Positions 1 through 23,647 of a stretch of 25,472 nucleotides of DNA are shown one piece after another. The notes under the pieces were generated by a model that was given only the letters and a program-made list of their open reading frames with translations, did no database searches and had not been told where the DNA came from. How positions within the stretch are numbered: position 1 is the stretch's first letter; each line of letters starts with the position of its first letter. This stretch comes from Phycisphaerales bacterium (GTDB taxonomy: Bacteria > Planctomycetota > Phycisphaerae > Phycisphaerales > SM1A02): assembly GCA_035543215.1 (NCBI GenBank), contig DATKJG010000360.1, positions 1-25,472 on the forward strand, written 5' to 3'. The position numbers were made by a program, and so were the translations under genes.

Positions 1-3000
1 CGGCCGTCGCTGCCGCGAGGCGTTGAAGGCGCTGGAGATCATGTCGGCGATGAGGCTGAGCGGAGCGTGGGTCGGCCGGTACAACTTGACGATGCGTTCA
101 GCCCCTTGTGGGGGGGGTGCGTCGAGGATCTCGATCATCTGCTCGACCACGTCGAACTTGTCGCCGCGGCCTGTGACGATGAGCGTGTTCAGCCGCGCAT
201 CAGCCTGTACCGCAATCGTGTCCTTCTTCGACGACTGGGGCCGCGGCGGCCAGAAGTACATGAACGCGTCCGGCTGGTTGTACAGCAGGTCGTTGACGAG
301 ATTCTGCACCGTGCGCTGAATCTCTGTAGCCCGCGCGTTCTTCAGTTGGAACACCTTGAAGGTCAGCGCGCCGGCAGCCTCGGCCGTGTCAAACTGCTCG
401 ACAAGTTTCTGCACGTCGGCGAAGTCGGCGTCGTTGGCGCATACCAGCAGCGTGTTGCTCGATTCGATCGCCATCACCGCCACGGCCGCCTTGGGCTGGC
501 CGCCCGTCCCGCCGCCTTCGCGCGTCTGCGCCTGCAGCGCGGCGCGGCGGTCGTAGAACTGCTGAATGGCCTGGGCCACCGATTCCGCCGGCGCCTTGGC
601 CAACGTGATCGTTCGCACCGGGAACTTCTGCTCGGGTGGCTTGGCGAAGGCGGCGATCAGGTCGCTGACGATCTTGAAATCAATGTCGTTCGCCGCCACG
701 ATCAGCGCGTTGGAAGGACCGTCGGCCAGAACGCTCACGCGCTTGGTGAGGTCGCCCGGCTGCCCTGCCGCAGGCGCGTACTTCTGCAATATCTGGCTGA
801 TCATCGTCGCGATGTGCCGCGCATCCAGTTCGGCCGGCAGGGCGATGGAGCGGATCTTGCCGGGCGCGGCGGGCAACTGCTCCTGCATCTGCTTCAGCAG
901 CGCGATGATGCGCTCGACGGCGCGCGGCGCGCCGAGAAAAACGAGGGAGTTGGTCGCCTGATCCACCGCGATCGTGACGTCGGGCTCCTGTTGCGGCGAC
1001 GGTGGAGCATCCTGTGCCATCGCGATCACGCACGTTGCGAGCATCGCCTGTATCGAAACGCCTGCAGCACTGGACTGCGAGCCGCTCGCGGGAGTCGCTT
1101 GCGGTTTCGCACCCTCGCCTCGCGAGTTCAGCAACTCTTCAAGCGTCATCACCTCGACCGTCGGCCCGCCCTCACCGTCACGCTGCAGCATCTTCTTGAG
1201 CGCCGCCGCGATGTCGGCCGCGTTGCCGCGCGCCGGATCGAGTGGAACCACCTTCATTTGCCGGCCACTGGCGAGAGCTGCCTGATCGACGCGCTTCACA
1301 ACCTCCTCGATGGCGTGAAACTGCTCGGCCGTGCCGCGCACCAGCAGGCTGTTGCTGGCAGGGTCGACGCGAATGACCGGCTTGCGGGCCGCCGGATCCT
1401 CGGCGAACACGGCATCCAGACTCGTGGCGAGTTGCGCGGCGTCAGCGTTCACCAGTGTCAGCACCTGGACGGAGCGCTCAGCATCGCCCGATCGCTCCTG
1501 ATCCAGTTCAGCCACGAGTTGCCCGGCCAGCGGCATGAGTTGGGCCGGTGCGCTGATCAGCAGACGATTGCCTGCGACATCGGGAAAGACCGACGGCTGG
1601 GCGATGCTTACGCCCGCGCGCACGATGGCCCGCAAGTCCGCCGGCCAGCGGCTCGGATCGCGCAACAGACCCTGCACAATCTGCGCCAGCATCTCGGCCG
1701 GGGCGTTCTTCAGGCCAATCAGTCGCAGATCGATCTGCGGCGCAGCCAGCGCTTGCGCATCGCGCTCGGCGAGCATCGCCATGGCACGCTGCGTTTCGGC
1801 TTCGGGGCCGATGACCACGATCGCGCCCGATTGCGGCTCAGCGACGATTTCCAGCGTTGTCCGTGTCGCAGCCCCTCCGATCGGCCGGGTCGCATCCATC
1901 ACGCGCTTGACGTTGGCGGCCAGCGAATTGATATCGAGCGAGTTCTTCGGCGTGAACACACTGCTGACGCGCTGCGACTGGTCATCGGGCGCATCCAATT
2001 GCTTGATCAACGTCTCGGCCAGCGCCAGCGCCTGCTGCGGACCGCTGACGATCAGGCTGTTGGTGCGGGCGTCCGCTTCGACGCGGATCTTCGGTGTGAG
2101 ATTGAGTTGGCCGCGGCTGGCGCGAATGCGCTCCAGCAGGATGCGCGGATCGGTCTCCTGCTGATCGTTCAGCAGGTTCTGCACCGTCTGGGAAATCTTC
2201 GTCGCGTCGGCGTGTTGAAGCGTGAAGGTCTTGGCATCCATCGCATCGGACGTCGGCCGTGCATCCAGCGGCTCGATCAGGGCTTCGACTTCCGCGAGTT
2301 CTGCCTCGAGCCCGACCATGATGATGGCATTGGAGCCCGGCCCCGCGAAAAGCTTGACGCTGACCGGCTCGCCCGTGGCCTTGCTCACCATGCTCGGCAG
2401 CGCGGCCATGAGCGATTGCGACACGCTGCCGGCATCGGCGAAGGTCAGGGGTTTGACACGCACGATCGGATCGCCAACCGACGCCGTGCCACTGTCGAGT
2501 TGCTGAATCAGCGTCTCGGCCACGGGCATGATCGCCTCGGGCGCCGAGAGAATGAGCGTGTTGGTCTTGCGGTCGGCTGTGACATTCAGCAGCGCCGCGG
2601 CCTCGTTCTTCGCCTCGGGCAGGTCCTGAGCGATGCGCGTCAGAAGCACCTGGCGCAGCATCTCGGCGATGGTCTCGGCCTTGGCGTTCTTCAAGGTGAA
2701 GAAGCGCAGCGTGGTGGCCGGGCCCGCGCGCTGCACGTCAAGATCCTTCAGAACGGTTTCGACACGCGCGAAGATCTCAGCAGGACCCGACACGACCAGG
2801 GCCTTGCTGACCGGCTCGGTGGCGATGTTGGTCGGCGTGCGCTGATCCGCGGCTCCCCCACTGCCAAGCGAATTGGATGCGGCGAGTTGGCGCAGGGTCT
2901 GCGCGATGGATTCAAGATTGGCGTGTTCGACACGATACGTGCGTACCTGCGTCTCCACGGAGAGTTGCGCGCGATCAAGTTGATCCACCAACTGCTGGAA

Positions 3001-5385
3001 CCCCGCCATGCGCTGCACCGGCGCATCGACGATGAGCGAGTTGGTCTGTGCATCGGCCCGCACGACGACCTCGCGCGGCTTGGCCAGTTGCGGCAGCGGC
3101 CGGCCGCGTGCATCCAAAGGAGGAGGGGGAGCGGGGTACATCTCGTCGATCGTGCGCGCCAACTGCTCCGCACGCGCGACCTTCAGCGGGAAGATGCGAA
3201 TCTCGCGGCCTTCCAGGTCGGTCCGCTCGACGGTGTTCAATTCCTCCACCATCTTCTGGATGTCGCCCAGGAGGTCGGGATGCGCCGCCACCAGCAGAGC
3301 ATTGGTGACGGGATCGGCGGCGATGTTGACGGGCTTGGCCTTGCGCTCGGAGGCGGTGCGCTGGTTGTATTGATTCATCAGCGCACTGGCGACCGAACCC
3401 GCATCGGCGATCTTCAACTGCAGGATGCGCAGCGGCGGCATGCCGGCCCCCACGGCCGCTTCCTTGCTATCGAGACTTGCCGCCAGCGATTCCAGCACGG
3501 CCAGTTGCTCGGGCGTCGCGGTGATCACCAGAGTGTTCAATTGATCGACCGGCGTGAACGTCGGCGCGACGTACTGCGAGCCGTCGGACGGCTGAAGCAG
3601 CGGCTGGGCCAGTGTGTTGAGCGGGCCGGCGATCTCGCTTGGCAGAACGCTGGTCAGCGTGATGCGCCTGGCTTCGCGCGCCACGGTCACGTTGCCTTCG
3701 ATCATGCGCAGCGTGGTGGTGAATTGCTCGACTGCTCTTGCCGATCCGACAGCCGTCACGACGCGCGCGTCGGGATCGACCTCGACGGAGATGGTGCGCG
3801 AGGTCTCATCCAGAGCCGCCGATTGCTCATCGAAGAGTTTGCGTGCCTGATCGACGATCTTGACCGGGTCGCCGGCCGCGATGCGCAATTGCCGCACCTG
3901 CTTGTCGGCCGGCGCCTGGCGGTCCAGCGCCTGCGCCAAGGCGCGCACCGAGGCGACATCGCCCGGCAGGCCGGTGACGAGGATCGACTTGCCGTCGGGC
4001 CCCGGTGCGATCTTCATGACCGCCGCCTGCCGGCGTGTGAGCATGCTCTGCACCGCGGTGACAACGGCCTGGGCATTGGCGCGCTGGAGTTCGATCACTG
4101 CCGCGCCGCTCTGTTCGTTGCTTGCCTGCTGAGTCGCCGCCGGCTCACCCTCGAGTTCGCGAATGAGCGCCTTGGCCTCGACGATCTGCGCCTCAGTGCC
4201 GAGCATCACCACCTTCGACATTTCATCGAGCGCGATGATCGTCGGCCGCGGTGGCTGATTGGGATTACGCGGCGGCGCGTTGGGATCCGCCCCGCCGCCC
4301 GCCCCGCCGCCGCGCTCGTACAACTGCCGCAGGCGATTCGCCGCATCCTGGGCGCTGATGATCGACAACGTTGCGCTCCACAGCGTCCGGCCGGCGCTCG
4401 CAGCGTCGCTGGCGGGCACGTCCAGCAACTTGATCGCCTCGCGCAGACCATCGATCTTCGCCTGAACGCCCTTGGCGATAACCGAATTGGTCCGCTCATC
4501 CGCGGTGATCGTCAACCCCGGCATCTGATCCTCTTCCAGTTTGACCTGCCGGCCCTCCTGGTTGATGACATACTTCTCCACACGCTGACTGAGCAAGGCC
4601 TTGAGCGGCGTCATCAGTTCCACCGCCTTGGCATGCTTGATCGCGAAGATCTCAACTTGGCCTTCGGGATCGGCCTGATCGAGTTGCGTGACGATCGCCA
4701 GCAATCGCCGCACCTGCCCGGCGGTCTCGGTGATCATCAGCGAGTTCTGCTGCTCCATCGCCGCCACGGAGCCGTACGCGGCGTTGACCATCGCCCCGAG
4801 TTTCTCCGCGAGGTTCTTGGCCAGCGCGATCTTCAACGGCATCACGACGGTCACGATCTGGTCGTCGGTTACCGACTCCGGCAGCGTGCCGGTAAAGGTC
4901 GGAATGTTCTCCTTCGCCATCTCCGTGAGTTTCTGCAGGTACAGCATGTTGCCGTCGACGCGCAACATCACGCCCTTGCTCTGCAGGATGATGTTGAGGA
5001 TGCGCAGGGCCTCGGGCATGTCGTAGCCGCGCGGCGAGACGTAATCGAGCGTGCCTTCGGGAACATCCGATTCCCAGACCACCGGCAGCCCGGTCGAGCG
5101 CGCGAAGAAATCGATGACCTGGCGATAGGTCGCACCCTTGAAGTTGAAGCGAATGTCGAGCGGCGCTGCGGGGGCAGCGGGTACGGCAGGTGGAGCCTGC
5201 GCCGTCGCGGGTTGCGTGGCGGCTGGTTGCTCGGCGACCGGGGCGGACGGTGCGGCTGCGGCCGGCTGCGATGCCGGCGCGGTCGCAGGCGGATCCTGCG
5301 CCAGCACCGTGCCGCTCATCAGCGCCAGCGCGGCAATTGGGATGCGCACACCAACAGACAGCGATTTGCAACGTGCTCTTTGCAT
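1..5385 (-). CDS. Giant secretin N-terminal-domain repeat protein (GspD/PilQ-like), partial: 3' end lies beyond the left edge, >=1795 aa
   Basis: Hand translation from ATG at 5385, preceded by GGAGGTGAAGG (SD). It reads MQRARCKSLSVGVRIPIAALALMSGTVLA|QDPP (signal peptide), a P/A/Q/T-rich linker, an N0-like domain (IRFNFKGATYRQVIDFFARSTG...) and repeated N-domain units (e.g. ITADERTNSVIA, VTADRKTNTLIL, VEADARTNSLIVSG). The segments I translated are open in this frame down to ...LSLIADMISSAFNASRQRRP at base 1, and the track lists no stop-terminated ORF in this frame. It lies at the end of a gspF-G-H-I-J-K-L-M-like operon. The C-terminal secretin domain is not in the window. Confidence 0.88.
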   Translation of the reverse strand, partial: MQRARCKSLSVGVRIPIAALALMSGTVLAQDPPATAPASQPAAAAPSAPVAEQPAATQPATAQAPPAVPAAPAAPLDIRFNFKGATYRQVIDFFARSTGLPVVWESDVPEGTLDYVSPRGYDMPEALRILNIILQSKGVMLRVDGNMLYLQKLTEMAKENIPTFTGTLPESVTDDQIVTVVMPLKIALAKNLAEKLGAMVNAAYGSVAAMEQQNSLMITETAGQVRRLLAIVTQLDQADPEGQVEIFAIKHAKAVELMTPLKALLSQRVEKYVINQEGRQVKLEEDQMPGLTITADERTNSVIAKGVQAKIDGLREAIKLLDVPASDAASAGRTLWSATLSIISAQDAANRLRQLYERGGGAGGGADPNAPPRNPNQPPRPTIIALDEMSKVVMLGTEAQIVEAKALIRELEGEPAATQQASNEQSGAAVIELQRANAQAVVTAVQSMLTRRQAAVMKIAPGPDGKSILVTGLPGDVASVRALAQALDRQAPADKQVRQLRIAAGDPVKIVDQARKLFDEQSAALDETSRTISVEVDPDARVVTAVGSARAVEQFTTTLRMIEGNVTVAREARRITLTSVLPSEIAGPLNTLAQPLLQPSDGSQYVAPTFTPVDQLNTLVITATPEQLAVLESLAASLDSKEAAVGAGMPPLRILQLKIADAGSVASALMNQYNQRTASERKAKPVNIAADPVTNALLVAAHPDLLGDIQKMVEELNTVERTDLEGREIRIFPLKVARAEQLARTIDEMYPAPPPPLDARGRPLPQLAKPREVVVRADAQTNSLIVDAPVQRMAGFQQLVDQLDRAQLSVETQVRTYRVEHANLESIAQTLRQLAASNSLGSGGAADQRTPTNIATEPVSKALVVSGPAEIFARVETVLKDLDVQRAGPATTLRFFTLKNAKAETIAEMLRQVLLTRIAQDLPEAKNEAAALLNVTADRKTNTLILSAPEAIMPVAETLIQQLDSGTASVGDPIVRVKPLTFADAGSVSQSLMAALPSMVSKATGEPVSVKLFAGPGSNAIIMVGLEAELAEVEALIEPLDARPTSDAMDAKTFTLQHADATKISQTVQNLLNDQQETDPRILLERIRASRGQLNLTPKIRVEADARTNSLIVSGPQQALALAETLIKQLDAPDDQSQRVSSVFTPKNSLDINSLAANVKRVMDATRPIGGAATRTTLEIVAEPQSGAIVVIGPEAETQRAMAMLAERDAQALAAPQIDLRLIGLKNAPAEMLAQIVQGLLRDPSRWPADLRAIVRAGVSIAQPSVFPDVAGNRLLISAPAQLMPLAGQLVAELDQERSGDAERSVQVLTLVNADAAQLATSLDAVFAEDPAARKPVIRVDPASNSLLVRGTAEQFHAIEEVVKRVDQAALASGRQMKVVPLDPARGNAADIAAALKKMLQRDGEGGPTVEVMTLEELLNSRGEGAKPQATPASGSQSSAAGVSIQAMLATCVIAMAQDAPPSPQQEPDVTIAVDQATNSLVFLGAPRAVERIIALLKQMQEQLPAAPGKIRSIALPAELDARHIATMISQILQKYAPAAGQPGDLTKRVSVLADGPSNALIVAANDIDFKIVSDLIAAFAKPPEQKFPVRTITLAKAPAESVAQAIQQFYDRRAALQAQTREGGGTGGQPKAAVAVMAIESSNTLLVCANDADFADVQKLVEQFDTAEAAGALTFKVFQLKNARATEIQRTVQNLVNDLLYNQPDAFMYFWPPRPQSSKKDTIAVQADARLNTLIVTGRGDKFDVVEQMIEILDAPPPQGAERIVKLYRPTHAPLSLIADMISSAFNASRQRRP
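130..4900 (-). repeat. About 19 tandem, diverged secretin N-domain (N1/N2/N3-type, roughly 80 aa) protein repeats
   Basis: A recurring beta-turn-beta core, D-x-x-[TS]-N-[STA]-L-[ILV]-[ILV], followed by an amphipathic helix ending in LD, occurs near 4745, 4490, 4225, 3985, 3775, 3535, 3300, 3045, 2805, 2560, 2325, 2060, 1820, 1560, 1355, 945, 700, 445 and 185. Spacing is mostly about 210-270 nt. The repeats are visible at protein level only, and the count is manual. Confidence 0.8.
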
Positions 5386-5466
5386 CCTTCACCTCCGTTC
5401 TTTCCCGCAGCGAGAGGGGAAAGGACGTTCTCGGTCACAACCTGTCTTGCCCGCGCGCCGAGCCAG

Positions 5467-6444
5467 TCATTGGCCAGCGGGCGAGCGCTGATCCATCGTC
5501 GAGCCCACCGCCACAATGACGTGCTGCTCGCCGAGCGTGAACTCAGCGGCCTCGGCGTCGCGCGCCGCGCCGTGGAACACCATGGCATCGAGGGCCTGGC
5601 CCGGCGCAAGCACGCGTGTCTGTCCGCTCGGCTGATGCCGCAGCCATGCCTCGACGCCCGATGGCCCCTGCGCCACGCCCGTGAGGGCCCATTCGCCAAA
5701 GGGGAATGGCGGCGGCGCGGGTGCGGCGGCGGCCGGCTGCTCGGTCTTTGGCGGAGCCGGCGGGGCGGGTGGAGGCGGCACTCGGAATGGGTTGCCGCTG
5801 ACCAGCGCAGCGAAACGCGACTGCAATTCGGGATTGGGCGGCTGCGCTGGCTGTTCGGTCTTCGGTTCGCGGCCGGGCAGGAAAAGCGTCGTCAGCCGCA
5901 GCGACACGTTGAGGCGGGCCCCATTGTCGCGCGGATCCAGCCGCACCTCGTCGATGCGCTTGATCCACGGTTCGGCCTCGATGGCGGTGATCAGCCGCAC
6001 GACGTCGGCCAGCGCGCCGACGCCGGAGATCGACGCCTCGACCTCGACGAAGTCGATCTCATCGCGCAGCGGCTTATACGACGCGGAGGAGAACAGCACG
6101 CGCGCCGGCGTGCCCTTGGGCCGGCCCGAGCCATCGGTGCCCACGGAAACGCCCTGCAGTTTCGATTGCTCGGCCAGGCGATTGAGCCGCGTGCGAAGTC
6201 GGTGATCGGCCGACTCGAGGCTGCCGCCGAGCGTGCGATCGACGATGGCCTGCAGATCGCGCGAGACGCCGGCCTTCTTCTGAGCGGCGTCGCGATGGCG
6301 CGCCAGTGTCGCGTTCGCGCCGTCGAGGTCTTCGATCAACGTACGGCGCGGCGCGAGATACCACTTGTTGACGGCGCTGTACAGCAGCCCCGCACACGCG
6401 AGGCCGGCGATCGCGATCGCGATGGGCTTGAGGATCGAGCTCAT
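5467..6444 (-). CDS. PilO/GspM-like inner-membrane assembly protein with a Pro-rich linker and a C-terminal GspC/PilP-like beta domain
   Basis: N-terminal TM segment (IAIAIAGLACAGLLYSAV), coiled coil, and a ferredoxin-like PilO/GspM pattern (VEVEASISGVGALADVVRLITAIEAEPWIKRIDEVRLDP). After PPPPAPPAPP comes a WALTGVAQGPSGVEAWLR...LAPGQAL domain. Its ATG overlaps the upstream TGA (6441-6444). Confidence 0.7.
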   Translation of the reverse strand: MSSILKPIAIAIAGLACAGLLYSAVNKWYLAPRRTLIEDLDGANATLARHRDAAQKKAGVSRDLQAIVDRTLGGSLESADHRLRTRLNRLAEQSKLQGVSVGTDGSGRPKGTPARVLFSSASYKPLRDEIDFVEVEASISGVGALADVVRLITAIEAEPWIKRIDEVRLDPRDNGARLNVSLRLTTLFLPGREPKTEQPAQPPNPELQSRFAALVSGNPFRVPPPPAPPAPPKTEQPAAAAPAPPPFPFGEWALTGVAQGPSGVEAWLRHQPSGQTRVLAPGQALDAMVFHGAARDAEAAEFTLGEQHVIVAVGSTMDQRSPAGQ

Positions 6445-8150
6445 CGCTCCGGCTCCGCGACCGGTTCGCTGGCGTCGGCCGATGTGACCGTCTGGTCAGT
6501 GGCCTTCGCGTCCGGATTCGCCGCCGTCGATTTCCGATCGCTCACAGGCGTGGCGGGCTGCGGCGCATCCGCGGGCGCCGCGGCCTGTGTTCGCAGGCGA
6601 TAGGTGAAGCCGAACGGCATGCGCTTGCCGCCGCGCGCATCGGCACCCGTCGTACTCGCGGCGTAGATCGGATTCTGAATGAGCGCGCCGCGGAAGGCGT
6701 CGGCCGTAGCGCGATTGCGGGCTTCGCCATCGATCACGATCGTCGCCTGGTGACCGGCGCTCCAGCGGTTGCTCCGCCGGTCGTAGGTTACGCCGCGAAA
6801 CTCCAGTGTGCCGGTCCAGGAATCGAGCACGATCTGCTCCGGCGGCGGGGCGACCTTGGCCAGGAACATGGCGTGATCGAGCCAATCGACATGAACGCTC
6901 TGCCACTGCTCCAGGTGCGCGAGCTTGTAGGCATCGCGGAAACTGCGGGCGTACGCGGCGTCATCCGACTTGTTCGTGCTCGCCAGCGTGCTGACGCGAC
7001 TCTGCAGCGATTGCAGGTCATTTCGCATCAGCGTGAAGGCGACGCCGCCGATGACCACGGCCGCCGCGGCCGCCAGCAGTCGTCGCTGCCGCGCCCGCGC
7101 GCCGACATCGGGCGTCTTGCGCGGATGCAGAAAGTCGATGCGCTCGACGGAGGATTCGCCTTCAAGCAGCAGACCCACCAACGGCCAGACGCGCGAGAGG
7201 TCCGGCGGTCCTTCGCCAGGCGCGGTGCGCTCGTCGATCTCGACGCAAGGATGCTCGCGCAGAACCTTCACCGGCATCTTCAGCATTTCGCCGACCGGAC
7301 CCGCGGCGTACTCGGCCACGCGGCGATCGCCCATGATCACGGCCTGCCCGATGCCGCCGGAGTCGTCGCCTGAGCGGTAACTCATCCAGGTTCGCCGCGC
7401 CTCGGTGACGACGGCCTCGGCCATGGCCAGCGCATCCTGCGGCGCGGGCACCTCCGCCGCGCGCGAGAACCGGATTGAGCCTTCGCTGAGGACGCAGAAC
7501 TCGACGCCCTCGCCGACGACGTCGACGGCGAGCGTTGCCGGCGCTTCGCTCGCGCGCACAGAGTCGGCGACGGGAGCGCTTTCCGATTCATCGGCGACCC
7601 TTCCCACATCCTCGACGCGGACGCTGATGGTCTGCGGCTCGACCAGCAGGTTCATGAGCGCGGCCGCGCCCATCGTCCGCAGCGCGATGCGCTGCACCTT
7701 CAGGCCGGCTTCGTCCATCACCTGCTGCACGAACTCGATCTGCTTGCGCGGCACGGCGACCGCCAGCACCGTGGTGCTGGCCTCGTGCCGTTCGACGGCC
7801 ACGAAATCGATGACTGCGGTCTCGGCGTCGAAAGGCAATTCCCGCTGCATGGCCAGACGCGTCATGTCCGGCAGTTCGGCCGGGTCGACGGTCGGGAGGA
7901 TGATGCGCTTGAGGATGACGTGCTCGCGGCCGACGGAAATTGTGGCCGGTCCGCGGGAAAATCCAGCCGCGGCGAGCCGCTCGGCCAGCCACCGGCCGGC
8001 TGCTGCCGGGTCGTCAAGGTTCAGGTCCGTGGGAACGTCGGCGACCACGACCCGCCCGACGCGCACGCCGCGGCGCGCCACGGCCGCAGCCTGCACCGCC
8101 CGAAGGCGCCGCCGGCCAAGGTCGATCGCGATCGCGTTGCGTGTTCCCAT
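6441..8150 (-). CDS. PilM-PilN fusion (GspL-like) assembly platform protein
   Basis: Start moved from 8222 to ATG 8150 because GGAGG lies just upstream. The N-terminus has the actin-like PilM motif AIAIDLG, plus AMQRELPFDAETAVIDF and VLAVAVPRKQI. IDFLHPRK matches the PilN N-terminal INLL-type motif and is followed by a TM helix (LLAAAAAVVIGGVAFTLM) and a periplasmic PilN-like fold. 569 aa. Confidence 0.8.
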   Translation of the reverse strand: MGTRNAIAIDLGRRRLRAVQAAAVARRGVRVGRVVVADVPTDLNLDDPAAAGRWLAERLAAAGFSRGPATISVGREHVILKRIILPTVDPAELPDMTRLAMQRELPFDAETAVIDFVAVERHEASTTVLAVAVPRKQIEFVQQVMDEAGLKVQRIALRTMGAAALMNLLVEPQTISVRVEDVGRVADESESAPVADSVRASEAPATLAVDVVGEGVEFCVLSEGSIRFSRAAEVPAPQDALAMAEAVVTEARRTWMSYRSGDDSGGIGQAVIMGDRRVAEYAAGPVGEMLKMPVKVLREHPCVEIDERTAPGEGPPDLSRVWPLVGLLLEGESSVERIDFLHPRKTPDVGARARQRRLLAAAAAVVIGGVAFTLMRNDLQSLQSRVSTLASTNKSDDAAYARSFRDAYKLAHLEQWQSVHVDWLDHAMFLAKVAPPPEQIVLDSWTGTLEFRGVTYDRRSNRWSAGHQATIVIDGEARNRATADAFRGALIQNPIYAASTTGADARGGKRMPFGFTYRLRTQAAAPADAPQPATPVSDRKSTAANPDAKATDQTVTSADASEPVAEPER

Positions 8151-8410
8151 TCGTCCTCCGCTGAAACTGCACGCTGGGTCATCCTGACCGGTCACGGAAC
8201 GCCGCCGGAGCGGGAAAGCCATGGTAGCGATGAGGCCTGCCGATGCACGTCATGCCGCGGGGCCGATCGCGGTTTTTTTCCCGTCGGCAACGATTTCGAC
8301 GCGCACGAGTGTGCACAACCTGCGAAGTGCGCGGAGAACGGGAAGATAGTGAAGACTGACTTGTAGGGCCGGCGCGCCGGCCGGTTGCAAAACCCCATGC
8401 AGCCACAGAC

Positions 8411-9889
8411 TCATGGACCGGAGGTCCAGCGGCCGATGCGCCCCGGCCCTCTTGGCTCCGAAGGCGCCGGCTGCGTGTCGTTCTCTCCATCGCCTCGACC
8501 CGGCGCGCGCGGCCGTGCATTCGTCGTCGGCCTGCTTGCAGGCTGCGTGCCTGCACTCGGCGCGGGCTCGACATCGGCCTGCACCGCTTCGGGTTCGCTG
8601 AACGTGGATTCCTCCGTGCTGTTCGCCTCCAGCGCCATCAGTGCCGCATCGCGCAGGAGCGTGATGTCGCGCAGGTACGCGATGCGCGGCTTTGGCCCCG
8701 CCAGATCAATCACCAGTTCCTGCACCTGCGGATTGATGATCGGCCCGTCCGGCGCATCGGCGTTGACCTCGCCTGCGGCCAGGCGAACGCGATAGGTCCA
8801 GCATCGAGCCGTCACGCGGCCCGCCATTTGCTCATATGTTTCCGGCGAGATGATCTGACTGGTCACGGGCCAGGCGCTGGTGCCCCGCTCCACAGGCGAG
8901 AGGTCCTGCCTGACGCTGATCATCTGGTCCACCTGTTCGGGCGTGACTCCCGGAAGGGCCAGCAACGCCTCGCGCGGCGCGGCGTTGATGTCCAGACGTC
9001 CGAAATGCAGATCGCCCGCTTCGGTGGTGAAGGCGTCGAGAATCGCCGGCCACTGCTCCAACGGCGTCTTGTAGGCGCGCATCGCCTTGACGAGACTGGT
9101 ATCGCTGTCGAACTTCGTGCCGCTCTCGAACACCTGCTTCATGACCGTGGCTGCGTCGGCGCCGAATCGCTCCTCGATGCGCTTCCCGAGTTCCTCGCTC
9201 CATTTCTGGTTGAGGTTGATCCGCCGGTTGGAGGTGTACTGCACAGCCGGCTCGACGGAGAAGACGGTCACGACATCGGCGAGACCGAGCGGCCGCGAAG
9301 CGCTCGAGTTGGTCGCCACGACGCGCACATGCACCGGCCGACTCGCATCGATCGCCAAGAGCGCGATCGTTGTGCCATATAGCATCTCGATGCTCATGCC
9401 CGGCGCGGCGAGCAGTTCACTCACCGATTGGACCGGCCGCCCCAGGCCATCGCGCCAGGCAATGATGCCATCCGCCGCGACGTGATCGACCAGGCCCGTG
9501 CGCGCCAGCGCCTCAGCGTCGACGCGGTTGAGATCGAGTTTCGCGGCTTCGGGCGCGAGGATTCCGCCATCGGCGTTGACGGCCAGCAGCCGCACGACGC
9601 CCGCGCGCGTGCCGGCCTCATAGACGAGGTACTGCGGATCGAGTTCGGGAAGCTCGCCTGCGAGAATGCGATCGCGCTGATCGGCGAGGCGGCTCATGAT
9701 GGCCTGCGCGCCTGACCACAACAACGCCCGAGCCTGGGCGGCATCAGCGCTGCCGGCCGCGCCTGCGGCCTCCGTCTGCGATACGTAGAGGAGGCCGGTC
9801 GCCACCAGAATCGCGCTCATCATGCACACCAGCACGGCCAGCATGATGAAGGAACGCCGGGCCGGCGAAGGTGATCGGTCACCGCTCAT
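8411..9889 (-). CDS. gspK: Type II secretion minor pseudopilin GspK-like protein
   Basis: Atypical prepilin leader RRS|FIMLAVLVCMMSAILVATGLL with no Glu5, as is typical of GspK. Two HhH-like motifs: KLDLNRVDAEAL and GRLDINAAPREALLALPGV. Start placed at ATG 9889, which overlaps the upstream stop, rather than 9928. Confidence 0.8.
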   Translation of the reverse strand: MSGDRSPSPARRSFIMLAVLVCMMSAILVATGLLYVSQTEAAGAAGSADAAQARALLWSGAQAIMSRLADQRDRILAGELPELDPQYLVYEAGTRAGVVRLLAVNADGGILAPEAAKLDLNRVDAEALARTGLVDHVAADGIIAWRDGLGRPVQSVSELLAAPGMSIEMLYGTTIALLAIDASRPVHVRVVATNSSASRPLGLADVVTVFSVEPAVQYTSNRRINLNQKWSEELGKRIEERFGADAATVMKQVFESGTKFDSDTSLVKAMRAYKTPLEQWPAILDAFTTEAGDLHFGRLDINAAPREALLALPGVTPEQVDQMISVRQDLSPVERGTSAWPVTSQIISPETYEQMAGRVTARCWTYRVRLAAGEVNADAPDGPIINPQVQELVIDLAGPKPRIAYLRDITLLRDAALMALEANSTEESTFSEPEAVQADVEPAPSAGTQPASRPTTNARPRAPGRGDGENDTQPAPSEPRGPGRIGRWTSGP

Positions 9890-10607
9890 TCGCCGCCGCC
9901 GCCTCCTCCCCGCCATCTGGAATAACAATCACGCGCCGGCGATCGGGCGGCGGCGCTCGGAACGACTCCGACTCGCTCATCATGGCGAAGGCGTTCTCGT
10001 CGAAGTTCCCAGCGGATTCGCCCGGCTGCGTCGAAGGTCCCGCGCCCGATGCGGCACTCGAAGCATCACCCGGCCAGGGGTTGAACCACACACACACCTC
10101 GACCGCAGCGGGAAGTCGATTGGCAGCAAGACTGTCGAACGATGCCTGCCATTGCCGTCCATCGAGATAGCGGAAGCGGATGTGTGCAATATCTCCGCCC
10201 AGCGCGGCGAACTCAGACGCCTCGCCCGCGAGGTGCTTGCGCGCCTCGAGGCTGTGGTTGCCCGCGTTGAACTGGTATTCGACAGCGTGCAGATCGCCCA
10301 GGGCCGCGGGATCATCCATGGCGCGCGAGGCCAGTTGCGTCATCACGCCGCGTGTGAGGATGCGCAGATGCGTCGCATCGCCGGTGATACCGGGGCCGTT
10401 GCGCGAATCGCCGACGAGACACGCGGCCAAGTCGCCTTCCACCCGCTCGATGAGCGTGGCAGCGGCCCGCTGCCGAGCCGCGTGTTCGAGTGTGCGGACG
10501 CGCGTCGCCAGCATGTCCTGGAGAAACACGAACATCGTCGCGCCGAGGATCAAGGCCAGTGCGATGGCGATGAGCACCTCCAGAAGCGTGAAGGCCCGTC
10601 GGGTCAT
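9879..10607 (-). CDS. Minor pseudopilin, GspJ-like (N-methylation motif)
   Basis: MTRRA|FTLLEVLIAIALALILG prepilin motif with Glu5. Position between the I-like and K-like genes; 4-nt start/stop overlap with the upstream gene. Confidence 0.8.
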   Translation of the reverse strand: MTRRAFTLLEVLIAIALALILGATMFVFLQDMLATRVRTLEHAARQRAAATLIERVEGDLAACLVGDSRNGPGITGDATHLRILTRGVMTQLASRAMDDPAALGDLHAVEYQFNAGNHSLEARKHLAGEASEFAALGGDIAHIRFRYLDGRQWQASFDSLAANRLPAAVEVCVWFNPWPGDASSAASGAGPSTQPGESAGNFDENAFAMMSESESFRAPPPDRRRVIVIPDGGEEAAAANER

Positions 10608-11113
10608 CGCTCGCCTCCGTCCGGAAGCCCACGTGTCATTTCGTCCTCGGCGAATGGCTGGCCCGCATCCTCACGCAGTGCCACCAATTGCCGCAGCGTG
10701 TAGCGCATCGGGCTCTCGCCGGCGGCTTCCAGTTCGGCCGGCATGTTCTCTATCACCGTCAGCTCGACGAGTGTCAGGTTGCCGAACTCGCTGCGCGCGG
10801 TTGAGACCTCGATGCGCCAGCGCGGCTCTTCGGCTGCGGCATGGGAGTCGGTGGAATTCGGATCGTCGATGTCGGCATCGCCGCGGAGGCCGCCAAGCGT
10901 CGTCAATCCCGCCTCGAGTTCAGCCATGCGCGACCTCGCAAGATCCACCGCCTCCTGCTGCAGGCGCGTGCGTTCGAGGGTTCTGGTCACCGAGCGCACG
11001 GAGGCGAGCGTCAGCGCCGCCGCGCCGACGAAGAGCGCCACCGCCAGCATGACCTCGAACAACACGCCGCCGCGCCGATGCTCGCCGAAACTGGCGTCAG
11101 CGCCGCAGGCCAT
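10604..11113 (-). CDS. Minor pseudopilin, GspI-like
   Basis: RRGG-VLFEVMLAVALFVGAAA pilin-like N-terminus and QEAVDLARSRMAEL helix. Size and position fit GspI. The start could be TTG 11119 or ATG 11113. Confidence 0.72.
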   Translation of the reverse strand: MACGADASFGEHRRGGVLFEVMLAVALFVGAAALTLASVRSVTRTLERTRLQQEAVDLARSRMAELEAGLTTLGGLRGDADIDDPNSTDSHAAAEEPRWRIEVSTARSEFGNLTLVELTVIENMPAELEAAGESPMRYTLRQLVALREDAGQPFAEDEMTRGLPDGGER

Positions 11114-11115
11114 GA

Positions 11116-12000
11116 TCAATCACCGCGAGCCGGTCGCTGGATGAGGCTGTCCTGCTTTGTCGATGGCCACGCGTCATCGGCGGCGGACTGGTCGGCAGGC
11201 AACGAGTTGTTACCCGATGGCATCGATTCGTCGGTGAGATCGGACAGGCGATGGAACATCGGCAGGCCGGACCAAGGATTGATCGTGATGCGGCCGAGGC
11301 GTCCCTGACCGTCATCGAGCCAGAGGTCATTGCCCACCATCGCCGAGCCATCGGGCATGAAGACCGCGAGGCGCACATCCTGTCCCTGCGCAAGTGCGTC
11401 GAGCACATCCGCGTCGCTGTCCCGAGCGACGGAGACCATCGTGCCGTCCGGCATGCAGATCTCCTCCATATCGGCGGCGTCGCCGGCAAACGGCGGATGT
11501 GTTCCAATTCGCATTCCGCGGCCAAGTGGGCGAATGGCCCAAGCCTCGGCAATGGCGCGATTCGACGAATCCGCGTCAGCATTGCCGCCGTTGCTGGCGG
11601 GCAGGCCTGACACTTCGTCACGTTCCGACGTCGAGCCGTGCCTGGGGGTGGGATTCTCGCGCGCACTGGAAGCCAAGGGCGAGGTGCCGGGCTCGATCGT
11701 GTCGAGAGCTCCCTGCGCATCCCACGGCGCATACACGCGCGCCTGCACCTGGCCGGTCATGGGGCTGTAGGTCACTTCAACCGCTTCGCCAGTCACCTGG
11801 GCATGGGCCCGGGCCATCATCAACTGCTCATTGGTGCCGTCGGCCGCGGCTTCAAACGCTCGCTCATCCAGGCGCTTGATCACGGTCGGCGCGACGATCG
11901 CCGCCAGGGCCGCCAACAACACCAGCGCGATCAACACCTCGAGCAGGGTCATTGCCGGGCGGCGTGTGCGTGCGTGCTGGAGCGTCATGTGGGCGTGCAT
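11116..12000 (-). CDS. Minor pseudopilin, GspH/FimT-like, enlarged
   Basis: RRPA|MTLLEVLIALVLLAALAAIVAP motif, LMMARAHAQVTG helix, and VFMPDGS...ITINPWSG C-terminal strands. SD AAGGAG lies 7 nt before the ATG. Confidence 0.78.
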   Translation of the reverse strand: MHAHMTLQHARTRRPAMTLLEVLIALVLLAALAAIVAPTVIKRLDERAFEAAADGTNEQLMMARAHAQVTGEAVEVTYSPMTGQVQARVYAPWDAQGALDTIEPGTSPLASSARENPTPRHGSTSERDEVSGLPASNGGNADADSSNRAIAEAWAIRPLGRGMRIGTHPPFAGDAADMEEICMPDGTMVSVARDSDADVLDALAQGQDVRLAVFMPDGSAMVGNDLWLDDGQGRLGRITINPWSGLPMFHRLSDLTDESMPSGNNSLPADQSAADDAWPSTKQDSLIQRPARGD

Positions 12001-12044: not shown

Positions 12045-12599
12045 TCAGCCGCCGCCGCTGCCGCTAGCGCCGCTCCCGGAATCAGGAGGCGGAGCGAATC
12101 CATCGCCACTATCGGCATTGGAGCCGCTGGTCCCTTGCGAAGACGCGTTGGTGATGTCGTCCTCAGTCCCCTCCTGCTTGTCGGGGCCAAAGGAGACGAG
12201 GTCGTACCCCTCGGTGTTCACTTCGCCTGGACAGTGATAAACGAGTTCCGAGCCCCACGTGTCCTTGGTGATGGGCGACTCGAGGTACTTGCCGCGCCAA
12301 TTGGTGGCTTCATCCTCGCTGACCAGCAGCGACTTGTCCCACAGAGCCGCGAGGCCCTCCTCATCGCTCGGATAGCGCTTCATGTCGAGTTTGAACTGCT
12401 TGAGCGCGCCATCGATGTTCTGGAACTGCACCTTCTGCAGATCAATGTCCGCCTGCTCCTTGCGCGGGATGAGATTCACGACCACCAGGCCGCCAATCGC
12501 CAGAAGGATGGCGATGACGATAAGCACTTCGATGAGCGTGAGGCCCCGGCGGCGGGGCCGGGCGGCGGAGAATCGGGAGGCGCGGGGTATGGTGTTCAC
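12045..12599 (-). CDS. gspG: Type II secretion major pseudopilin GspG
   Basis: RRRG|LTLIEVLIVIAILLAIGG, RYPSDEEGLAAL, and the GspG C-terminal signature KDTWGSELVYHCPG...YDLVSFGPDKQEGTEDDITN. Start set at GTG 12599, with GGAGG 8 nt upstream. Confidence 0.92.
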   Translation of the reverse strand: MNTIPRASRFSAARPRRRGLTLIEVLIVIAILLAIGGLVVVNLIPRKEQADIDLQKVQFQNIDGALKQFKLDMKRYPSDEEGLAALWDKSLLVSEDEATNWRGKYLESPITKDTWGSELVYHCPGEVNTEGYDLVSFGPDKQEGTEDDITNASSQGTSGSNADSGDGFAPPPDSGSGASGSGGG

Positions 12600-12664
12600 G
12601 AGAAGACCCTCCAATTTCGAGATCCGGCGATGCGGCCGCGACATCCATGCCGGGCCGAATGAAA

Positions 12665-12694
12665 AGTGTATGCCCATTCGCCTGCCTAGTGCAA
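12665..12694 (-). promoter_or_regulatory. Candidate sigma70-type internal promoter upstream of gspG
   Basis: The minus strand reads TTGCAC-N18-TACACT, about 65 nt upstream of the gspG start, inside the 156-nt gspF-gspG gap. Confidence 0.5.
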
Positions 12695-12755: not shown

Positions 12756-13955
12756 TCACCCCGAGAGCCCTGAACTCATACGCATCATGGGCACGATGAG
12801 CGCAATGAAAATGAACAGCACCACGCCCGCCATGCACAGCAACAGGGCCGGCTCGACCAGTCGCAGAAACACGTTCAGCAGGCGGTCAATACGCTTCTCG
12901 ATGGTGTCAGCGATGGTCACCAGCACACTTGGCAGGTTGTTCGCCGACTCGCCCACGCTGATCATCTCGATCACGTCGTCGTCGAACAGGCCGCTGTCAG
13001 CGAGTGGTTTGCTCAGCGTTTCGCCGGCGCGGACCGCCTCACCGGCGCGGTCGATCGCCTCGGCCAGCAGGATGTTGCCGGCGGCATCGCGGCTGATCTG
13101 CATGGCCTGCAGCACCGGGATGCCGTTCTCCAGCAGCGTGCCGAGTATGCGCGCGAAACGCCCGACAGCCACGGCGCGGGTAAGCGGGCCGATCGCGGGC
13201 ATCCTGGTCTGCAACTCCGCCAGGCCGCGCTGGACGCGCGGCGAGCGAGCGAGCCGCCACAATCCCAGGGCCACGAGCGCCGCGATCACCAGGATCGGCA
13301 GCCACCAGTGCGTTAGCGCATAGGAGGCGGATAGCAGCACCTTGGTCGGCCAGGGCAGTTGGATGCGCGCGTAGAAATCCTTGAAGCGCGGCACGAAGAC
13401 CAGCAGCGCGAAGATCACAATGCCCGCGCCCACCGTGAGCAGCACCAGCGGATAGATGAGGCTGCCGACCAATCGCGCACGAAGGTCCGCCTGATGCTCG
13501 AGAAACGTGCCCATGCGCGCGAGGACCGAATCAAGAAAGCCGCCCTTCTCGCCGGCCCGCACCATGGCGATCTGCACAGGGGGGAAGAATTCGCCATGCG
13601 TGGCCATGGCATCGCCCAGACGCTGACCATCGGCGACGGCGTCGGCGACCTTGTCCCACGTTCCGGCGAGGCGTGGATTCGACTTGCCGCGACCCAAGAG
13701 GCGCAGGCCGCGCAGAAGCGGCACGCCTGCCCGGAGGAGATCCGCCAGTTGCCGGTATGACGCGGCGAGCGGCCGCACACCGACACCGCGTCTGCCCACG
13801 CCCAGCCTCGGCCTGTCGCGCAATTCCTCAACGCGCACGGGAGCCAGGGCCCGGCTCTGCAGTTCCGCCAGCACGGCCGCGGAACTCGCACCGGCAAGCC
13901 GGCCCTCGATCTTCTGGCCAGCGGCATCGCGCGCGATGTAGGTGAACGTGGGCAC
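12756..13955 (-). CDS. gspF: Type II secretion inner-membrane platform protein GspF
   Basis: MPTFTYIARDAAG N-terminus, YRQLADLLRAGVPLL, AMVRAGEKGGFL, SLIYP, LLENGIP, MISVGESANNL and LVEP. This is the two-domain GspF/PilC pattern with three TM segments. Confidence 0.93.
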   Translation of the reverse strand: MPTFTYIARDAAGQKIEGRLAGASSAAVLAELQSRALAPVRVEELRDRPRLGVGRRGVGVRPLAASYRQLADLLRAGVPLLRGLRLLGRGKSNPRLAGTWDKVADAVADGQRLGDAMATHGEFFPPVQIAMVRAGEKGGFLDSVLARMGTFLEHQADLRARLVGSLIYPLVLLTVGAGIVIFALLVFVPRFKDFYARIQLPWPTKVLLSASYALTHWWLPILVIAALVALGLWRLARSPRVQRGLAELQTRMPAIGPLTRAVAVGRFARILGTLLENGIPVLQAMQISRDAAGNILLAEAIDRAGEAVRAGETLSKPLADSGLFDDDVIEMISVGESANNLPSVLVTIADTIEKRIDRLLNVFLRLVEPALLLCMAGVVLFIFIALIVPMMRMSSGLSG

Positions 13956-14445: not shown

Positions 14446-16128
<1,683 letters not shown>

Positions 16129-16145
16129 GGATGCACGTCGTGCCG

Positions 16146-16154
16146 TGGTAACCT
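16146..16154 (+). promoter_or_regulatory. Candidate extended -10 promoter (TGgTAACCT), leaderless, for acs
   Basis: TGn plus TAACCT, exactly 6 nt before ATG 16161; no SD. Confidence 0.5.
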
Positions 16155-16160
16155 GTCGAC

Positions 16161-18227
<2,067 letters not shown>

Positions 18228-18233: not shown

Positions 18234-19970
18234 ATGCGTCCCGATCAGGATTCAGCGATGCGCGGCGAGGCGCCTTGCGCAGCGCATGCAATCCTGATCA
18301 GCATCGCCACAGCGCTGCTGCTCGCGCCCTTCCTCGGCAAGGCCTATCACATCGATGACCCGATGTTTCTGTGGGTGGCTCAGCAGATTCGAGCACATCC
18401 GCTGGATTTCTACGGCTTTGATGTGAACTGGTACGGCATTGTGATGCCGATGCACGAGGTCACGCAGAATCCGCCGCTTGCATCGTATTTCATCGCGCTC
18501 AACTCACTTGCTGTCGGCTGGAGCGAACTTGGCCAGCACGTCTGCTTCCTGCTCCCGGCCATCGCGCTGTCGCTGGGGATCTACACGCTGGCTGCCCGCC
18601 TTTGCTCCCATGCATTGCTGTCTGCCTTGATCGCGATCCTCACGCCGGTCTTTGCCGTGTGTTCAAGCAGCATCATGTGCGATGTGCCGATGATGTCGCT
18701 GTGGCTCTGGTCAGTTATCGCGTGGGAGAATGGATTGCGACGATCGCAGTTGCCGTGGCTGCTGCTCGCGGCGCTGCTGATCGCCGCAGCCGCCCTGACA
18801 AAGTATTTTGGCGCAGCGCTGATCCCGCTTCTCCTGGCGTATTCGATCGCATACCGGCGCGGCGTGGGCCTCTGGATGTGCTGGCTCGTGATTCCAGTGC
18901 TCGCCCTGGTTGCATTCGAGTTCTGGACCAAGCGACTTTACGGTCACGGACTCCTCGCCGGGGCACTTGATTACCCGCAGGCAACGCGCGCGCTGCGGCC
19001 ACGAGGCAGCACCGTGCTGATGCAGGGGCTGGCGTTCACCGGAGGCTGCATGCTGCCAGCCCTGTTCTTCGCGCCGCTGATGTGGTCGCGCGGTGTCCTG
19101 GGTGCGGCGATCGTTGCCTGCGGTGCGCTCGCCTTGGCCGCAGTCCGCGTGGGCGCCTGGCAGACGCTCCAGTTCACGACGCCTGAAGGGCCCGACTGGC
19201 TCGCGGCAGTCCAGGCCGCGGCGCTGATCATCACCGGCGTGAGCGTGCTGGCAGCCGCTGCAGTTGACCTCTACCGTCGGCGTGATGCCGGTTCAGTGCT
19301 CCTCGCCGCCTGGGTTGCCGGGACGTTCGTCTTTGCGACGTATCTCAACTGGTCCGTGACGGCGCGCACCCTTCTTCCGATGGCACCAGCGGTCGCGATC
19401 CTGATCGTGCGCCGACTGGAGGACCGCGGCGCTCTGCCGCGACAGGACCGGAAGTCGCAGAACGCACACTTCGTTCGTTGGACACATCGATTCGACCTGC
19501 GAATTGCCTGTGCCTTGCTCGCGTCGGCTGTCATCGCCATGGCGGCGGCATGGAGCGACCATTTGGCGGCCGCGGCCGCACGAGAGGCGGCACATCGCGT
19601 CGCAGCCGTTCAGCGTCCATCAGTGGTAACCCTTTGGTTCATGGGGCATTGGGGTTGGCAACACTACCTGCAGGAGGCCGGGGCCAAGCCACTTGACTTC
19701 GATCACTCTGAGATCCTGCCCGGCGATGTCATCGCAGTCGCCGACTACGGCAGCAATATCGTCATGCTGCCGGCCGGCGCCGTCCGCCGTTCCGAAGTCA
19801 TCGATATTCCAACCCTGGGCTGGCTCACCGTGTTTCATCCCCTGTCGGGCGCAGGATTCCATTCAAGCCTGTACGGGCCGCTTCCCTTGGTTGTCGACGA
19901 CGTTCCGCCGGAGCGATTCGAGGTGTTCGTGGCCCGCGACACGATCCGATTGAAGATTCCGACTCGTTAG
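18234..19970 (+). CDS. GT-C fold multi-pass membrane glycosyltransferase (ArnT/PMT-like, GT39/GT83-related)
   Basis: YHIDDPMF first-loop acidic motif, QNPPLASY, many TM helices, AALTKYFG, and a C-terminal soluble domain. GAGGAG (SD) precedes the start. Substrate unknown. Confidence 0.75.
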   Translation: MRPDQDSAMRGEAPCAAHAILISIATALLLAPFLGKAYHIDDPMFLWVAQQIRAHPLDFYGFDVNWYGIVMPMHEVTQNPPLASYFIALNSLAVGWSELGQHVCFLLPAIALSLGIYTLAARLCSHALLSALIAILTPVFAVCSSSIMCDVPMMSLWLWSVIAWENGLRRSQLPWLLLAALLIAAAALTKYFGAALIPLLLAYSIAYRRGVGLWMCWLVIPVLALVAFEFWTKRLYGHGLLAGALDYPQATRALRPRGSTVLMQGLAFTGGCMLPALFFAPLMWSRGVLGAAIVACGALALAAVRVGAWQTLQFTTPEGPDWLAAVQAAALIITGVSVLAAAAVDLYRRRDAGSVLLAAWVAGTFVFATYLNWSVTARTLLPMAPAVAILIVRRLEDRGALPRQDRKSQNAHFVRWTHRFDLRIACALLASAVIAMAAAWSDHLAAAAAREAAHRVAAVQRPSVVTLWFMGHWGWQHYLQEAGAKPLDFDHSEILPGDVIAVADYGSNIVMLPAGAVRRSEVIDIPTLGWLTVFHPLSGAGFHSSLYGPLPLVVDDVPPERFEVFVARDTIRLKIPTR

Positions 19971-19978
19971 CGGGCAGA

Positions 19979-19984
19979 TATGCT
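19979..19984 (+). promoter_or_regulatory. Candidate -10 box (TATGCT), leaderless, for the FAD monooxygenase
   Basis: TANNNT exactly 6 nt before ATG 19991; no SD. Confidence 0.5.
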
Positions 19985-19990
19985 GGCTGC

Positions 19991-21226: not shown

Positions 21227-21230
21227 GCCG

Positions 21231-21236
21231 TATGCT
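21231..21236 (+). promoter_or_regulatory. Candidate -10 box (TATGCT) for the CDF gene
   Basis: TANNNT 8 nt before ATG 21245; no SD. Confidence 0.42.
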
Positions 21237-21244
21237 GCCCTTGA

Positions 21245-22180: not shown

Positions 22181-22191
22181 TCATCGACGGC

Positions 22192-22217
22192 CCCACGGAC
22201 AGAGTCCGTGGGCTTCT
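22192..22217. terminator. Hairpin between convergent CDF and aminotransferase genes; probable intrinsic terminator
   Basis: CCCACGGAC-AGA-GTCCGTGGG is a perfect 9-bp stem, followed by CTTCT on the plus strand (weak U tract). Confidence 0.6.
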
Positions 22218-22224
22218 ACCGGCT

Positions 22225-23124: not shown

Positions 23125-23130
23125 CGCCGG

Positions 23131-23136
23131 AGTGTA
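23131..23136 (-). promoter_or_regulatory. Candidate -10 box (TACACT), leaderless, for the aminotransferase
   Basis: TANNNT exactly 6 nt before ATG 23124 on the minus strand; no SD. Confidence 0.48.
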
Positions 23137-23624: not shown

Positions 23625-23647
23625 TTGCCTTGGAGAAGCATTCGCGG

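Follow-up and report, generated by a model that had tools for sequence, protein, structure and literature searches.

In the canonical secretin of type II secretion systems (T2SS), GspD, the periplasmic domains N0 to N3 are contained in a chain of about 650-750 amino acids (aa), and the pores studied to date have three to six ring domains. Current T2SS models assume that the periplasmic vestibule is built of three or four rings and measures about 10-15 nm. In solved systems, the GspC-HR/PilP module binds the N0 domain of the secretin, and each ring adds 3-4 nm of length, as seen in GspD and in the 34-nm PilQ complex of Thermus. The periplasm of planctomycetes has been described as variable in width. 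PilQ of Thermus thermophilus, one of the largest secretins characterized, has six stacked rings (N0-N5) that span most of a wide periplasm (PMC5745081). Here, we analyzed contig DATKJG010000360.1 of a Phycisphaerales bacterium (assembly GCA_035543215.1; 2.34 Mb in 493 contigs, 64% complete). The whole contig (C360), 25,472 nucleotides (nt) in length, is referred to as the window. One end of the window carries the first part of a secretin gene, which, when completed from other contigs, is probably a single giant T2SS gspD of about 3,917 codons whose N-domains would stack as rings into a long conduit.

The gene was recognized as a minus-strand open reading frame (ORF; 5385..1) of 1,795 codons without a stop, with an ATG start and an upstream GGAGG site, which runs off the contig end. 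This ORF is listed only when open-ended ORFs are permitted. It is also covered by a longer plus-strand ORF (1..6603; 2,200 codons) lying antisense to the secretin gene and its upstream neighbor. A first-pass annotation of the window had described the gene as hidden from the ORF track. At a GC content of 66%, long spurious ORFs arise. The plus-strand product is rich in arginine, glycine, and leucine and matched no Pfam family, while that of the minus strand carries a clear signal peptide and contains recurrent TNSLIV-type motifs. Of the 40 strain variants listed from public soil metagenome contigs, 31 fell on third positions of minus-frame codons (P = 1.3e-8), compared with 4 for the plus frame. 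Because the variants cluster at its third codon positions, the minus ORF is coding and under purifying selection. The plus-strand ORF was rejected as a real gene and is regarded as an antisense artifact on the basis of its composition, the missing Pfam match, and the misfit of the variants to its frame; such an ORF could mislead gene callers. The secretin frame is free of stops and frameshifts both in the window and in contig L018, which is 98.6% identical to it. The parts of the gene lying in the window are the following:

1..5385, minus strand: giant GspD-class secretin gene, first 1,795 codons (46%), cut by the contig end at position 1 (Pfam, ORF, and TIGR02517)
5299..5385, minus strand: Sec signal peptide, aa 1-29, with a basic n-region and a hydrophobic core (hydropathy, 2.01); predicted cleavage at VLA/QD
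5155..5298, minus strand: Pro/Ala-rich linker, aa 30-77, read from the translation
4858..5154, minus strand: N0 domain, aa 78-176 (structure profile; TIGR02517 match from model position 1)
100..4857, minus strand: 19 Secretin_N domains (beta-alpha-beta-beta-alpha), aa 177-1762, with linkers of 0-6 aa (profile models, structure prediction, and Foldseek)
994..1113, minus strand: insert splitting N-domain 15, aa 1425-1464 (structure prediction and alignment to relatives)
1..99, minus strand: N-domain 20, first half only (aa 1763-1795), truncated at the contig end and completed in contigs L017 and L018

The Pfam family Secretin_N (PF03958) matched the 1,795-aa product in 17 stretches (E = 8.9e-160), and 18 stretches were obtained in the genome-wide scan. 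A hidden Markov model (HMM) built from the protein's own domains placed 18 domains that tile aa 177-1762 almost without linkers. A 74-aa gap at aa 496-569 showed, by eye, the same beta-alpha-beta-beta-alpha pattern and was assigned to a diverged domain, giving 19 complete N-domains and 1 partial domain (aa 1763-1795) in the window. These units were visible in an AlphaFold2 (AF2) model of aa 1300-1600 (predicted local distance difference test score [pLDDT], 77.6), and the best structural matches of this model in Foldseek were ExeD, GspD, EpsD, and PulD. The N0 domain was matched weakly by Pfam PF21305 (E = 0.0085; 16.4 bits versus a cut-off of 27), but its presence was established by a profile of aa 70-430, which aligned to N0-N1-N2 of the solved GspD 5wq7 from chain residue 8 onward (E = 2e-21). 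The 48-residue low-complexity linker of proline and alanine between the signal peptide and N0 would give the mature protein a flexible N-terminal tail. No barrel was present within the window. The layout thus agrees with that described by the first-pass annotation, namely, a signal peptide, an N0-like domain, and about 19 N-domains over at least 1,795 aa with no barrel yet. That annotation had named missing Secretin_N matches and an interrupted frame among the findings that would refute it, and neither was observed.

The remainder of the gene was located on other contigs. In the same genome, contig C243 (3323-7501, minus strand) encodes a 1,393-aa fragment with an open 5' end, which contains about 12 Secretin_N domains and the Secretin barrel (PF00263; E = 9e-54). 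The middle piece was not found in the contigs of the source genome, the shortest of which is 2,005 bp. The window part and the C243 part were colinear on single proteins in 120 of 120 long relatives, and the spacing from the last residue of the former to the first residue of the latter was 626-737 aa in 118 of them (median, 701). Using a third-position-degenerate pattern from the window end, bridging contigs were recovered as two JGI contigs from one metagenome. The first contig (L017) matches positions 1-50 of the window exactly and remains open in the secretin frame for 2,139 aa until a stop codon; the last 1,394 aa of its product are 98.9% identical to the C243 fragment, and the DNA identity across all of C243 is 96.4%. 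The second contig (L018), part of an 88.8-kb contig, is the one mentioned above, whose 98.6% identity to the window extends over 8.25 kb; it overlaps the first by 101 nt without mismatch. In addition, a 3.9-kb contig from a public run (X2) matches window positions 1-50 without mismatch and extends 3.87 kb past them.

The bridge between the two parts is 729 aa, yielding a composite secretin of about 3,917 aa (3,920 aa in the JGI strain version). The composite contains 39 N-domains detected by HMM and the diverged domain, that is, 40 N-domains between aa 177 and 3622 with linkers of 0-10 aa, followed by the barrel. It is therefore very probable from the sequence joins that the window part and the C243 part form one single gene. 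The downstream barrel that the first-pass annotation had supposed was thus located on C243 and joined in frame by L017. Its count of about 19 repeats was correct for the window and too low for the whole protein, because the window stops at the contig end.

All assemblies of the source organism that we found break inside the secretin gene, at residues 353, 373, 1,031, 1,669, 1,795, and about 1,814. The break at residue 1,669 is the end of an 86-kb ENA contig (L013) that carries a 99%-identical neighbor gene. The public-run contigs are fragmented, with 6-8x depth and about 1.5% strain differences, and this low depth together with the strain differences probably causes the breaks. Near-identical repeats were rejected as the cause: no off-diagonal self-match was obtained at E < 1e-10, and the maximum identity between domains was 44%.

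Next, we examined the class of the secretin. Against solved structures, the N-terminal profile matched GspD (5wq7, E = 2e-21) better than PilQ (1e-5), and the barrel matched GspD at about 1e-40, PilQ at 1e-25, and type III secretion system secretins at 1e-13. The GspD equivalog TIGR02517 scored 707.9 bits (cut-off, 351.35) on the 2,139-aa barrel-bearing part of the related strain, about twice the PilQ and SctC scores of that part; the PilQ model TIGR02515 scored 348.8 bits, which is above its own cut-off of 284. On the first 700 aa of the window product alone, TIGR02517 scored 149.6 bits (E = 1e-43) from model position 1. No AMIN domain was found in the Pfam scan of the window product. Assignment to PilQ is contradicted by the lower scores at both ends, by the missing AMIN domain, and by a major pilin that belongs to the GspG equivalog. 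By homology, the protein is a GspD-class T2SS secretin, both ends being best matched by GspD, and it diverges in architecture from the canonical N0-N1-N2-N3-barrel layout of 650-750 aa.

Proteins of this size are widespread in the clade. Of 10 genomes sampled from the same order, at least 7 contained a barrel-bearing open frame of 3,942-5,073 aa, and six relatives that were retrieved, some from closed or near-complete genomes, are single uninterrupted ORFs of 3,942-4,634 aa with 41-48 domain matches. A search with the bridging region returned 454 proteins at E <= 1e-20. Among the best 120 of these, 103 were full length, with a median of 4,727 aa (3,343-5,073) and a median of 47 domain matches (31-52). 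The named relatives belong to Phycisphaerales, Phycisphaerae, or Planctomycetota, apart from one Verrucomicrobia match, and are deposited as "secretin N-terminal domain-containing protein," "type II secretion system protein D," or "hypothetical." The suspicion of the first-pass annotation that very large relatives already sit unannotated in databases was therefore justified. It had also allowed that the length might prove routine and already characterized; the length is routine for the clade, with the source protein at its short end, while no paper characterizing such proteins was found. In our literature search, no description of giant multi-N-domain secretins was found, although most subscription journals were outside the search and a paper may exist. 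A preprint on giant genes (10.1101/2023.11.21.568195) was considered as a description of the family and rejected since it concerns other proteins. Giant size in GspD is thus ordinary for the clade yet uncharacterized in the literature found.

Identity between the N-domains of the protein had a median of 29% and a maximum of 44%, with no higher-order period, and orthologous stretches in relatives were about 50-60% identical. These values indicate that the 40 N-domains are old and individually conserved. Among relatives, multi-domain blocks have been inserted or lost, as with aa ~740-1250 of the protein described here, which are missing from relative P0011. The source organism was detected in soil and rhizosphere metagenomes of many studies. 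A second secretin of ordinary size (728-aa frame) is encoded on contig C165 (457-2640, plus strand), which also has T2SSE- and T2SSF-like genes. The source organism therefore has a secretin system of normal size in addition to the giant one, a combination also seen in relatives such as G162 and G178.

The giant secretin gene is the last gene of a gspF-G-H-I-J-K-L-like operon, in which all genes are on the same strand. The genes preceding it are the following:

12756..13955, minus strand: GspF inner-membrane platform protein, first gene of the operon (PF00482, E = 7e-56; TIGR02120, E = 6e-93)
12045..12677, minus strand: GspG major pseudopilin (PF08334, E = 2e-25; TIGR01710, 101.3 bits, cut-off 88.85)
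11116..12000, minus strand: GspH-like pseudopilin with a prepilin N-methylation motif (PF07963; weak XpsH and gspH matches)
10604..11119, minus strand: GspI-like minor pseudopilin, weakly assigned (weak NCBIfam XpsI and gspI matches)
9879..10607, minus strand: GspJ-like minor pseudopilin (PF11612 T2SSJ and N_methyl; TIGR01711 weak)
8411..9928, minus strand: GspK-like minor pseudopilin candidate with an HHH_3 domain (PF12836, E = 2.7e-9; same operon place in contigs L005 and L013)
6441..8222, minus strand: PilM/GspL-like inner-membrane platform protein, 593 aa when read from the first ATG (PF11104 PilM_2, E = 2.8e-6; TIGR01175, E = 2.5e-9)
5467..6444, minus strand: 325-aa membrane-anchored protein with PilO/GspM-like and GspC-HR/PilP-like parts (AF2 fold comparison)

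For three of these genes, the products read from the first in-frame start were longer than the corresponding gene calls on L013 (593 versus 569 aa for 6441-8222, 210 versus 184 aa for 12045-12677, and 505 versus 492 aa for 8411-9928), and the true starts are therefore probably slightly downstream.

The 325-aa protein encoded next to the secretin had no sequence-level match in Pfam, NCBIfam, or a PDB profile search. In its AF2 model (pLDDT, 88.5), a membrane helix is followed by a PilO-like domain, which a proline-rich linker joins to a C-terminal beta-domain (aa 249-322). The PilO-like domain matched 2rjz with Z = 12.3. The beta-domain matched the HR domain of GspC in the GspC-GspD(N0) complex (3oss chain C; Z = 7.8, root mean square deviation of 2.4 A, 61/65 residues) and PilP (Z = 7.1-7.7); Z values below 8 are middling, yet all top matches for this region are HR or PilP domains. 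The gene precedes the secretin gene in all relatives inspected (L005, L013, and L019). Judging from the modeled fold, the 325-aa protein is the likely docking partner of the secretin N0 domain. Its HR/PilP-like fold and its conserved adjacency to the secretin support, without proving, an anchoring of the N0 end on the inner-membrane platform.

In addition, an unusual segment was found in N-domain 15, both halves of which were predicted by AF2 to fold with high confidence around a 40-aa disordered insert. The hydrophobic core of the insert (aa 1443-1457; nt 1015-1059) is the most hydrophobic stretch after the true signal peptide, and the segment ends in AMA/QDAPP, which is similar to the true cleavage region VLA/QDPPA. 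The barrel-bearing relatives P0026 and P0030 (about 1,820 aa) start exactly at this segment with a genuine signal peptide, and relative P0042 also starts at this point. In relatives L005 and L006, gene A (904 aa, no barrel) stops in the first half of an N-domain and shares an ATGA overlap with gene B (1,827 aa), whose ATG is preceded by AGGAGGG. These two genes have the same operon order and about 50% identity to the window protein on both sides of the junction. The split forms are 47-51% similar to the window protein and several fused forms 41%; since the split forms are closer than several fused ones, the fused or split state has changed within the clade. Among 118 fused relatives, 78 keep the hydrophobic character of the segment while its sequence drifts, a pattern that favors selection or repeated switching between the fused and split states. 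Two further roles of the segment were considered and rejected. For an internal translation start, the only ATG (aa 1448) is without a ribosome-binding site, and for a lipobox, the cysteine is not conserved and the -1 residue is unsuitable. From the expected topology, signal peptidase should not reach this site in the fused chain.

One other relative (L019, 9001-24576; GCA_013112555.1) carries the giant secretin as three overlapping genes of 2,191, 1,673, and 1,495 aa. It was rejected as a second independent mid-domain split. Because the junctions have no signal peptides and the pieces start mid-domain, this gene of about 5,350 aa is regarded as interrupted by frameshift-type breaks that are probably errors of the assembly.

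These results give the domain order of the secretin as signal peptide, Pro/Ala linker, N0, 40 tightly linked Secretin_N domains, beta-barrel, and a short tail. Twelve to 15 copies would assemble, with each N-domain contributing one ring as in solved secretins; N0 would dock on the inner-membrane platform, and the barrel would be inserted in the outer membrane. By analogy with these secretins, we infer ring stacking of the 40 domains into a continuous conduit of roughly 120-160 nm at 3-4 nm per ring. Such a length would suit a planctomycete periplasm that is exceptionally wide or invaginated, and for folded proteins to be pushed out, the GspG pseudopilus would need to extend through the conduit. 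A very long periplasmic tube, or a guide for a long pseudopilus, had also been suggested in the first-pass annotation. The segment in domain 15 marks the place where the protein is divided between two genes in relatives, whose products must join through the split N-domain.

Several points weigh against this proposal. At 120-160 nm, the tube would exceed the width of a normal periplasm at least fivefold, and no measurement of periplasm width for Phycisphaerae was found in the literature. A predicted four-copy fold of two N-domains (aa 1049-1216) scored 0.23 against a mark of 0.42, a result that counts neither way. The join between the window and C243 runs through a related strain (96-99% DNA identity) in another assembly. 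Short metatranscriptome contigs on the gene are compatible with expression and no proof of transcription. The ATPase gene gspE is absent from the operon, with several T2SSE ATPases elsewhere in the genome, and the platform partners resemble PilM, PilO, and PilP of type IV pili as much as T2SS parts. This last resemblance, weak matches to the Akkermansia Amuc_1100/1101 pilus-cluster families, and the passing of the PilQ cut-off (348.8 versus 284) would fit a type IV pilus-like fiber system whose long channel guides a pilus instead of secreting proteins. We consider such a machine unlikely given that the GspD score is about twice that of PilQ, with GspD favored at both ends, that the major pilin is above the GspG equivalog cut-off with minor pilins of the H/I/J/K type, and that neither an AMIN domain nor a PilT-type gene in the operon was found. 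The chance that the gene is an artifact, whether through a chance reading frame at high GC content, a pseudogene, or chimeric assembly, is negligible. Such DNA does yield long spurious frames, as exemplified by the 2,200-aa plus-strand frame; every assembly found of the source organism breaks within the gene; and the gene of one relative is fragmented into three gene calls. The artifact reading is nevertheless already refuted by the Secretin_N match (E = 9e-160), the third-position bias of the variants (P = 1.3e-8), and the intact ORF in independent assemblies and closed genomes, and the three calls in the one relative reflect a frameshift-type error in an assembly that was probably made from long reads.

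The remaining alternatives accept the giant secretin and differ in how its length is used. The 40 N-domains may form a compressible, bent, folded-back, or partly disordered chain with a shorter or variable span, which would tie the outer-membrane pore to the inner-membrane platform while the periplasm changes in width. A variable width is what is described for planctomycetes, the four-copy score gave rings no support, and multi-domain AF2 models match GspD domain by domain with a low overall template modeling score (0.25). The ring stack of Thermus PilQ itself has a hinge (PMC5745081). A flexible chain is nonetheless unlikely in our view, because linkers of 0-10 aa leave little slack, all solved secretins stack their N-domains as rings, and 40 positions each conserved as its own orthologue are a better fit to fixed neighbor contacts. 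It is also possible that the secretin works as two pieces, a barrel-less module with N0 and 14.5 domains and a module with 25.5 domains and the barrel, which would be cut or separated after AMA at aa 1457 and rejoined via the split N-domain 15. Consistent with this are the relatives that begin at this point (P0026, P0030, and P0042, the first two with a real signal peptide), the overlapping genes A and B of L005 with A ending mid-domain, the hydrophobic stretch retained in 78 of 118 fused relatives, and the confident modeled fold of the domain-15 halves around the disordered insert. A two-piece form of the source protein is also rather improbable, since the segment would enter SecY with its N-terminal side already periplasmic so that the peptidase site would face the cytoplasm, no usable internal start is present in the source gene, and the segment could be a tolerated remnant of repeated fusion and fission. 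Only tentatively do we propose that a continuous tube of more than 100 nm crosses an enlarged periplasm and is built from two modules locked by the split ring domain, with the retained internal signal peptide separating or positioning them. Altogether, a single giant GspD with stacked N-domains is the reading that we favor.

The rest of the window contains genes of other functions. At 14446-18227 (plus strand), a gene for a sodium:solute symporter (SSF, 560 aa) precedes one for acetyl-CoA synthetase (688 aa). With the DUF485 gene that adjoins the symporter in the near-identical contig L013, they correspond to the usual actP-yjcH-acs type of cluster for acetate uptake and activation. The region at 18234-25344 carries housekeeping-type genes encoding a PMT_2 glycosyltransferase, an FAD-dependent monooxygenase, a CDF cation-efflux protein, a class IV aminotransferase (minus strand), and a sulfotransferase (minus strand), and a 313-aa ORF at 24403-25344 (minus strand) had no family match.

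Current T2SS models do not accommodate a 40-domain GspD carried as an intact gene by hundreds of Phycisphaerae and other Planctomycetota. Such a protein raises the questions of where substrates enter, over what distance the pseudopilus grows, and how a chain of nearly 4,000 residues is exported and assembled 12- to 15-fold. The giant secretin would provide a molecular ruler for the disputed planctomycete cell plan through the relation of ring number to periplasm width, and the split and fused genes are a natural experiment on completing ring domains in trans. Genes of this kind are also regularly fragmented during assembly or masked by antisense ORFs, which matters for their annotation. If a tube of more than 100 nm exists, no secretion system is known to have a trans-envelope conduit of comparable length.

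Compared with the solved 15-mers of GspD, PulD, XcpQ, and EpsD (5wq7, 6hcg, 5wln, and 5wq8), the giant secretin shares the signal peptide, N0, N-domains, and C-terminal barrel, and its gene, as for known T2SS secretins, lies alongside gspF, gspG, minor pseudopilin genes, and a gene for a GspC-HR-like partner. It differs in having 40 N-domains in about 3,917 aa instead of N1-N3 in 650-750 aa, and it adds the 48-aa Pro/Ala linker before N0 and the signal-peptide-like insert in domain 15. In contrast to the usual T2SS, its operon lacks gspE and gspC of the usual kind, and no pilotin was identified. The predicted N0 partner has the same two folds as the PilO-PilP and GspM/GspC-HR connectors (2rjz, 3oss_C, 2y4y, and 4av2_M), here fused in one chain and with no detectable sequence similarity to them. 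In the two-gene form of the family (L005/L006; also P0026 and P0042), the chain is broken mid-domain and has fewer domains (2,731 aa in total), whereas it is continuous here, and the signal peptide of gene B aligns with the internal hydrophobic segment of the window protein. Thermus PilQ, with 757 aa and six rings, is a secretin for type IV pili and DNA uptake, whereas the giant secretin is of the GspD class and would have about seven times more rings. In Thermus PilQ, extra rings lengthen the channel enough to span a wide periplasm, which is the idea proposed here, and it is the nearest working precedent for the giant secretin.

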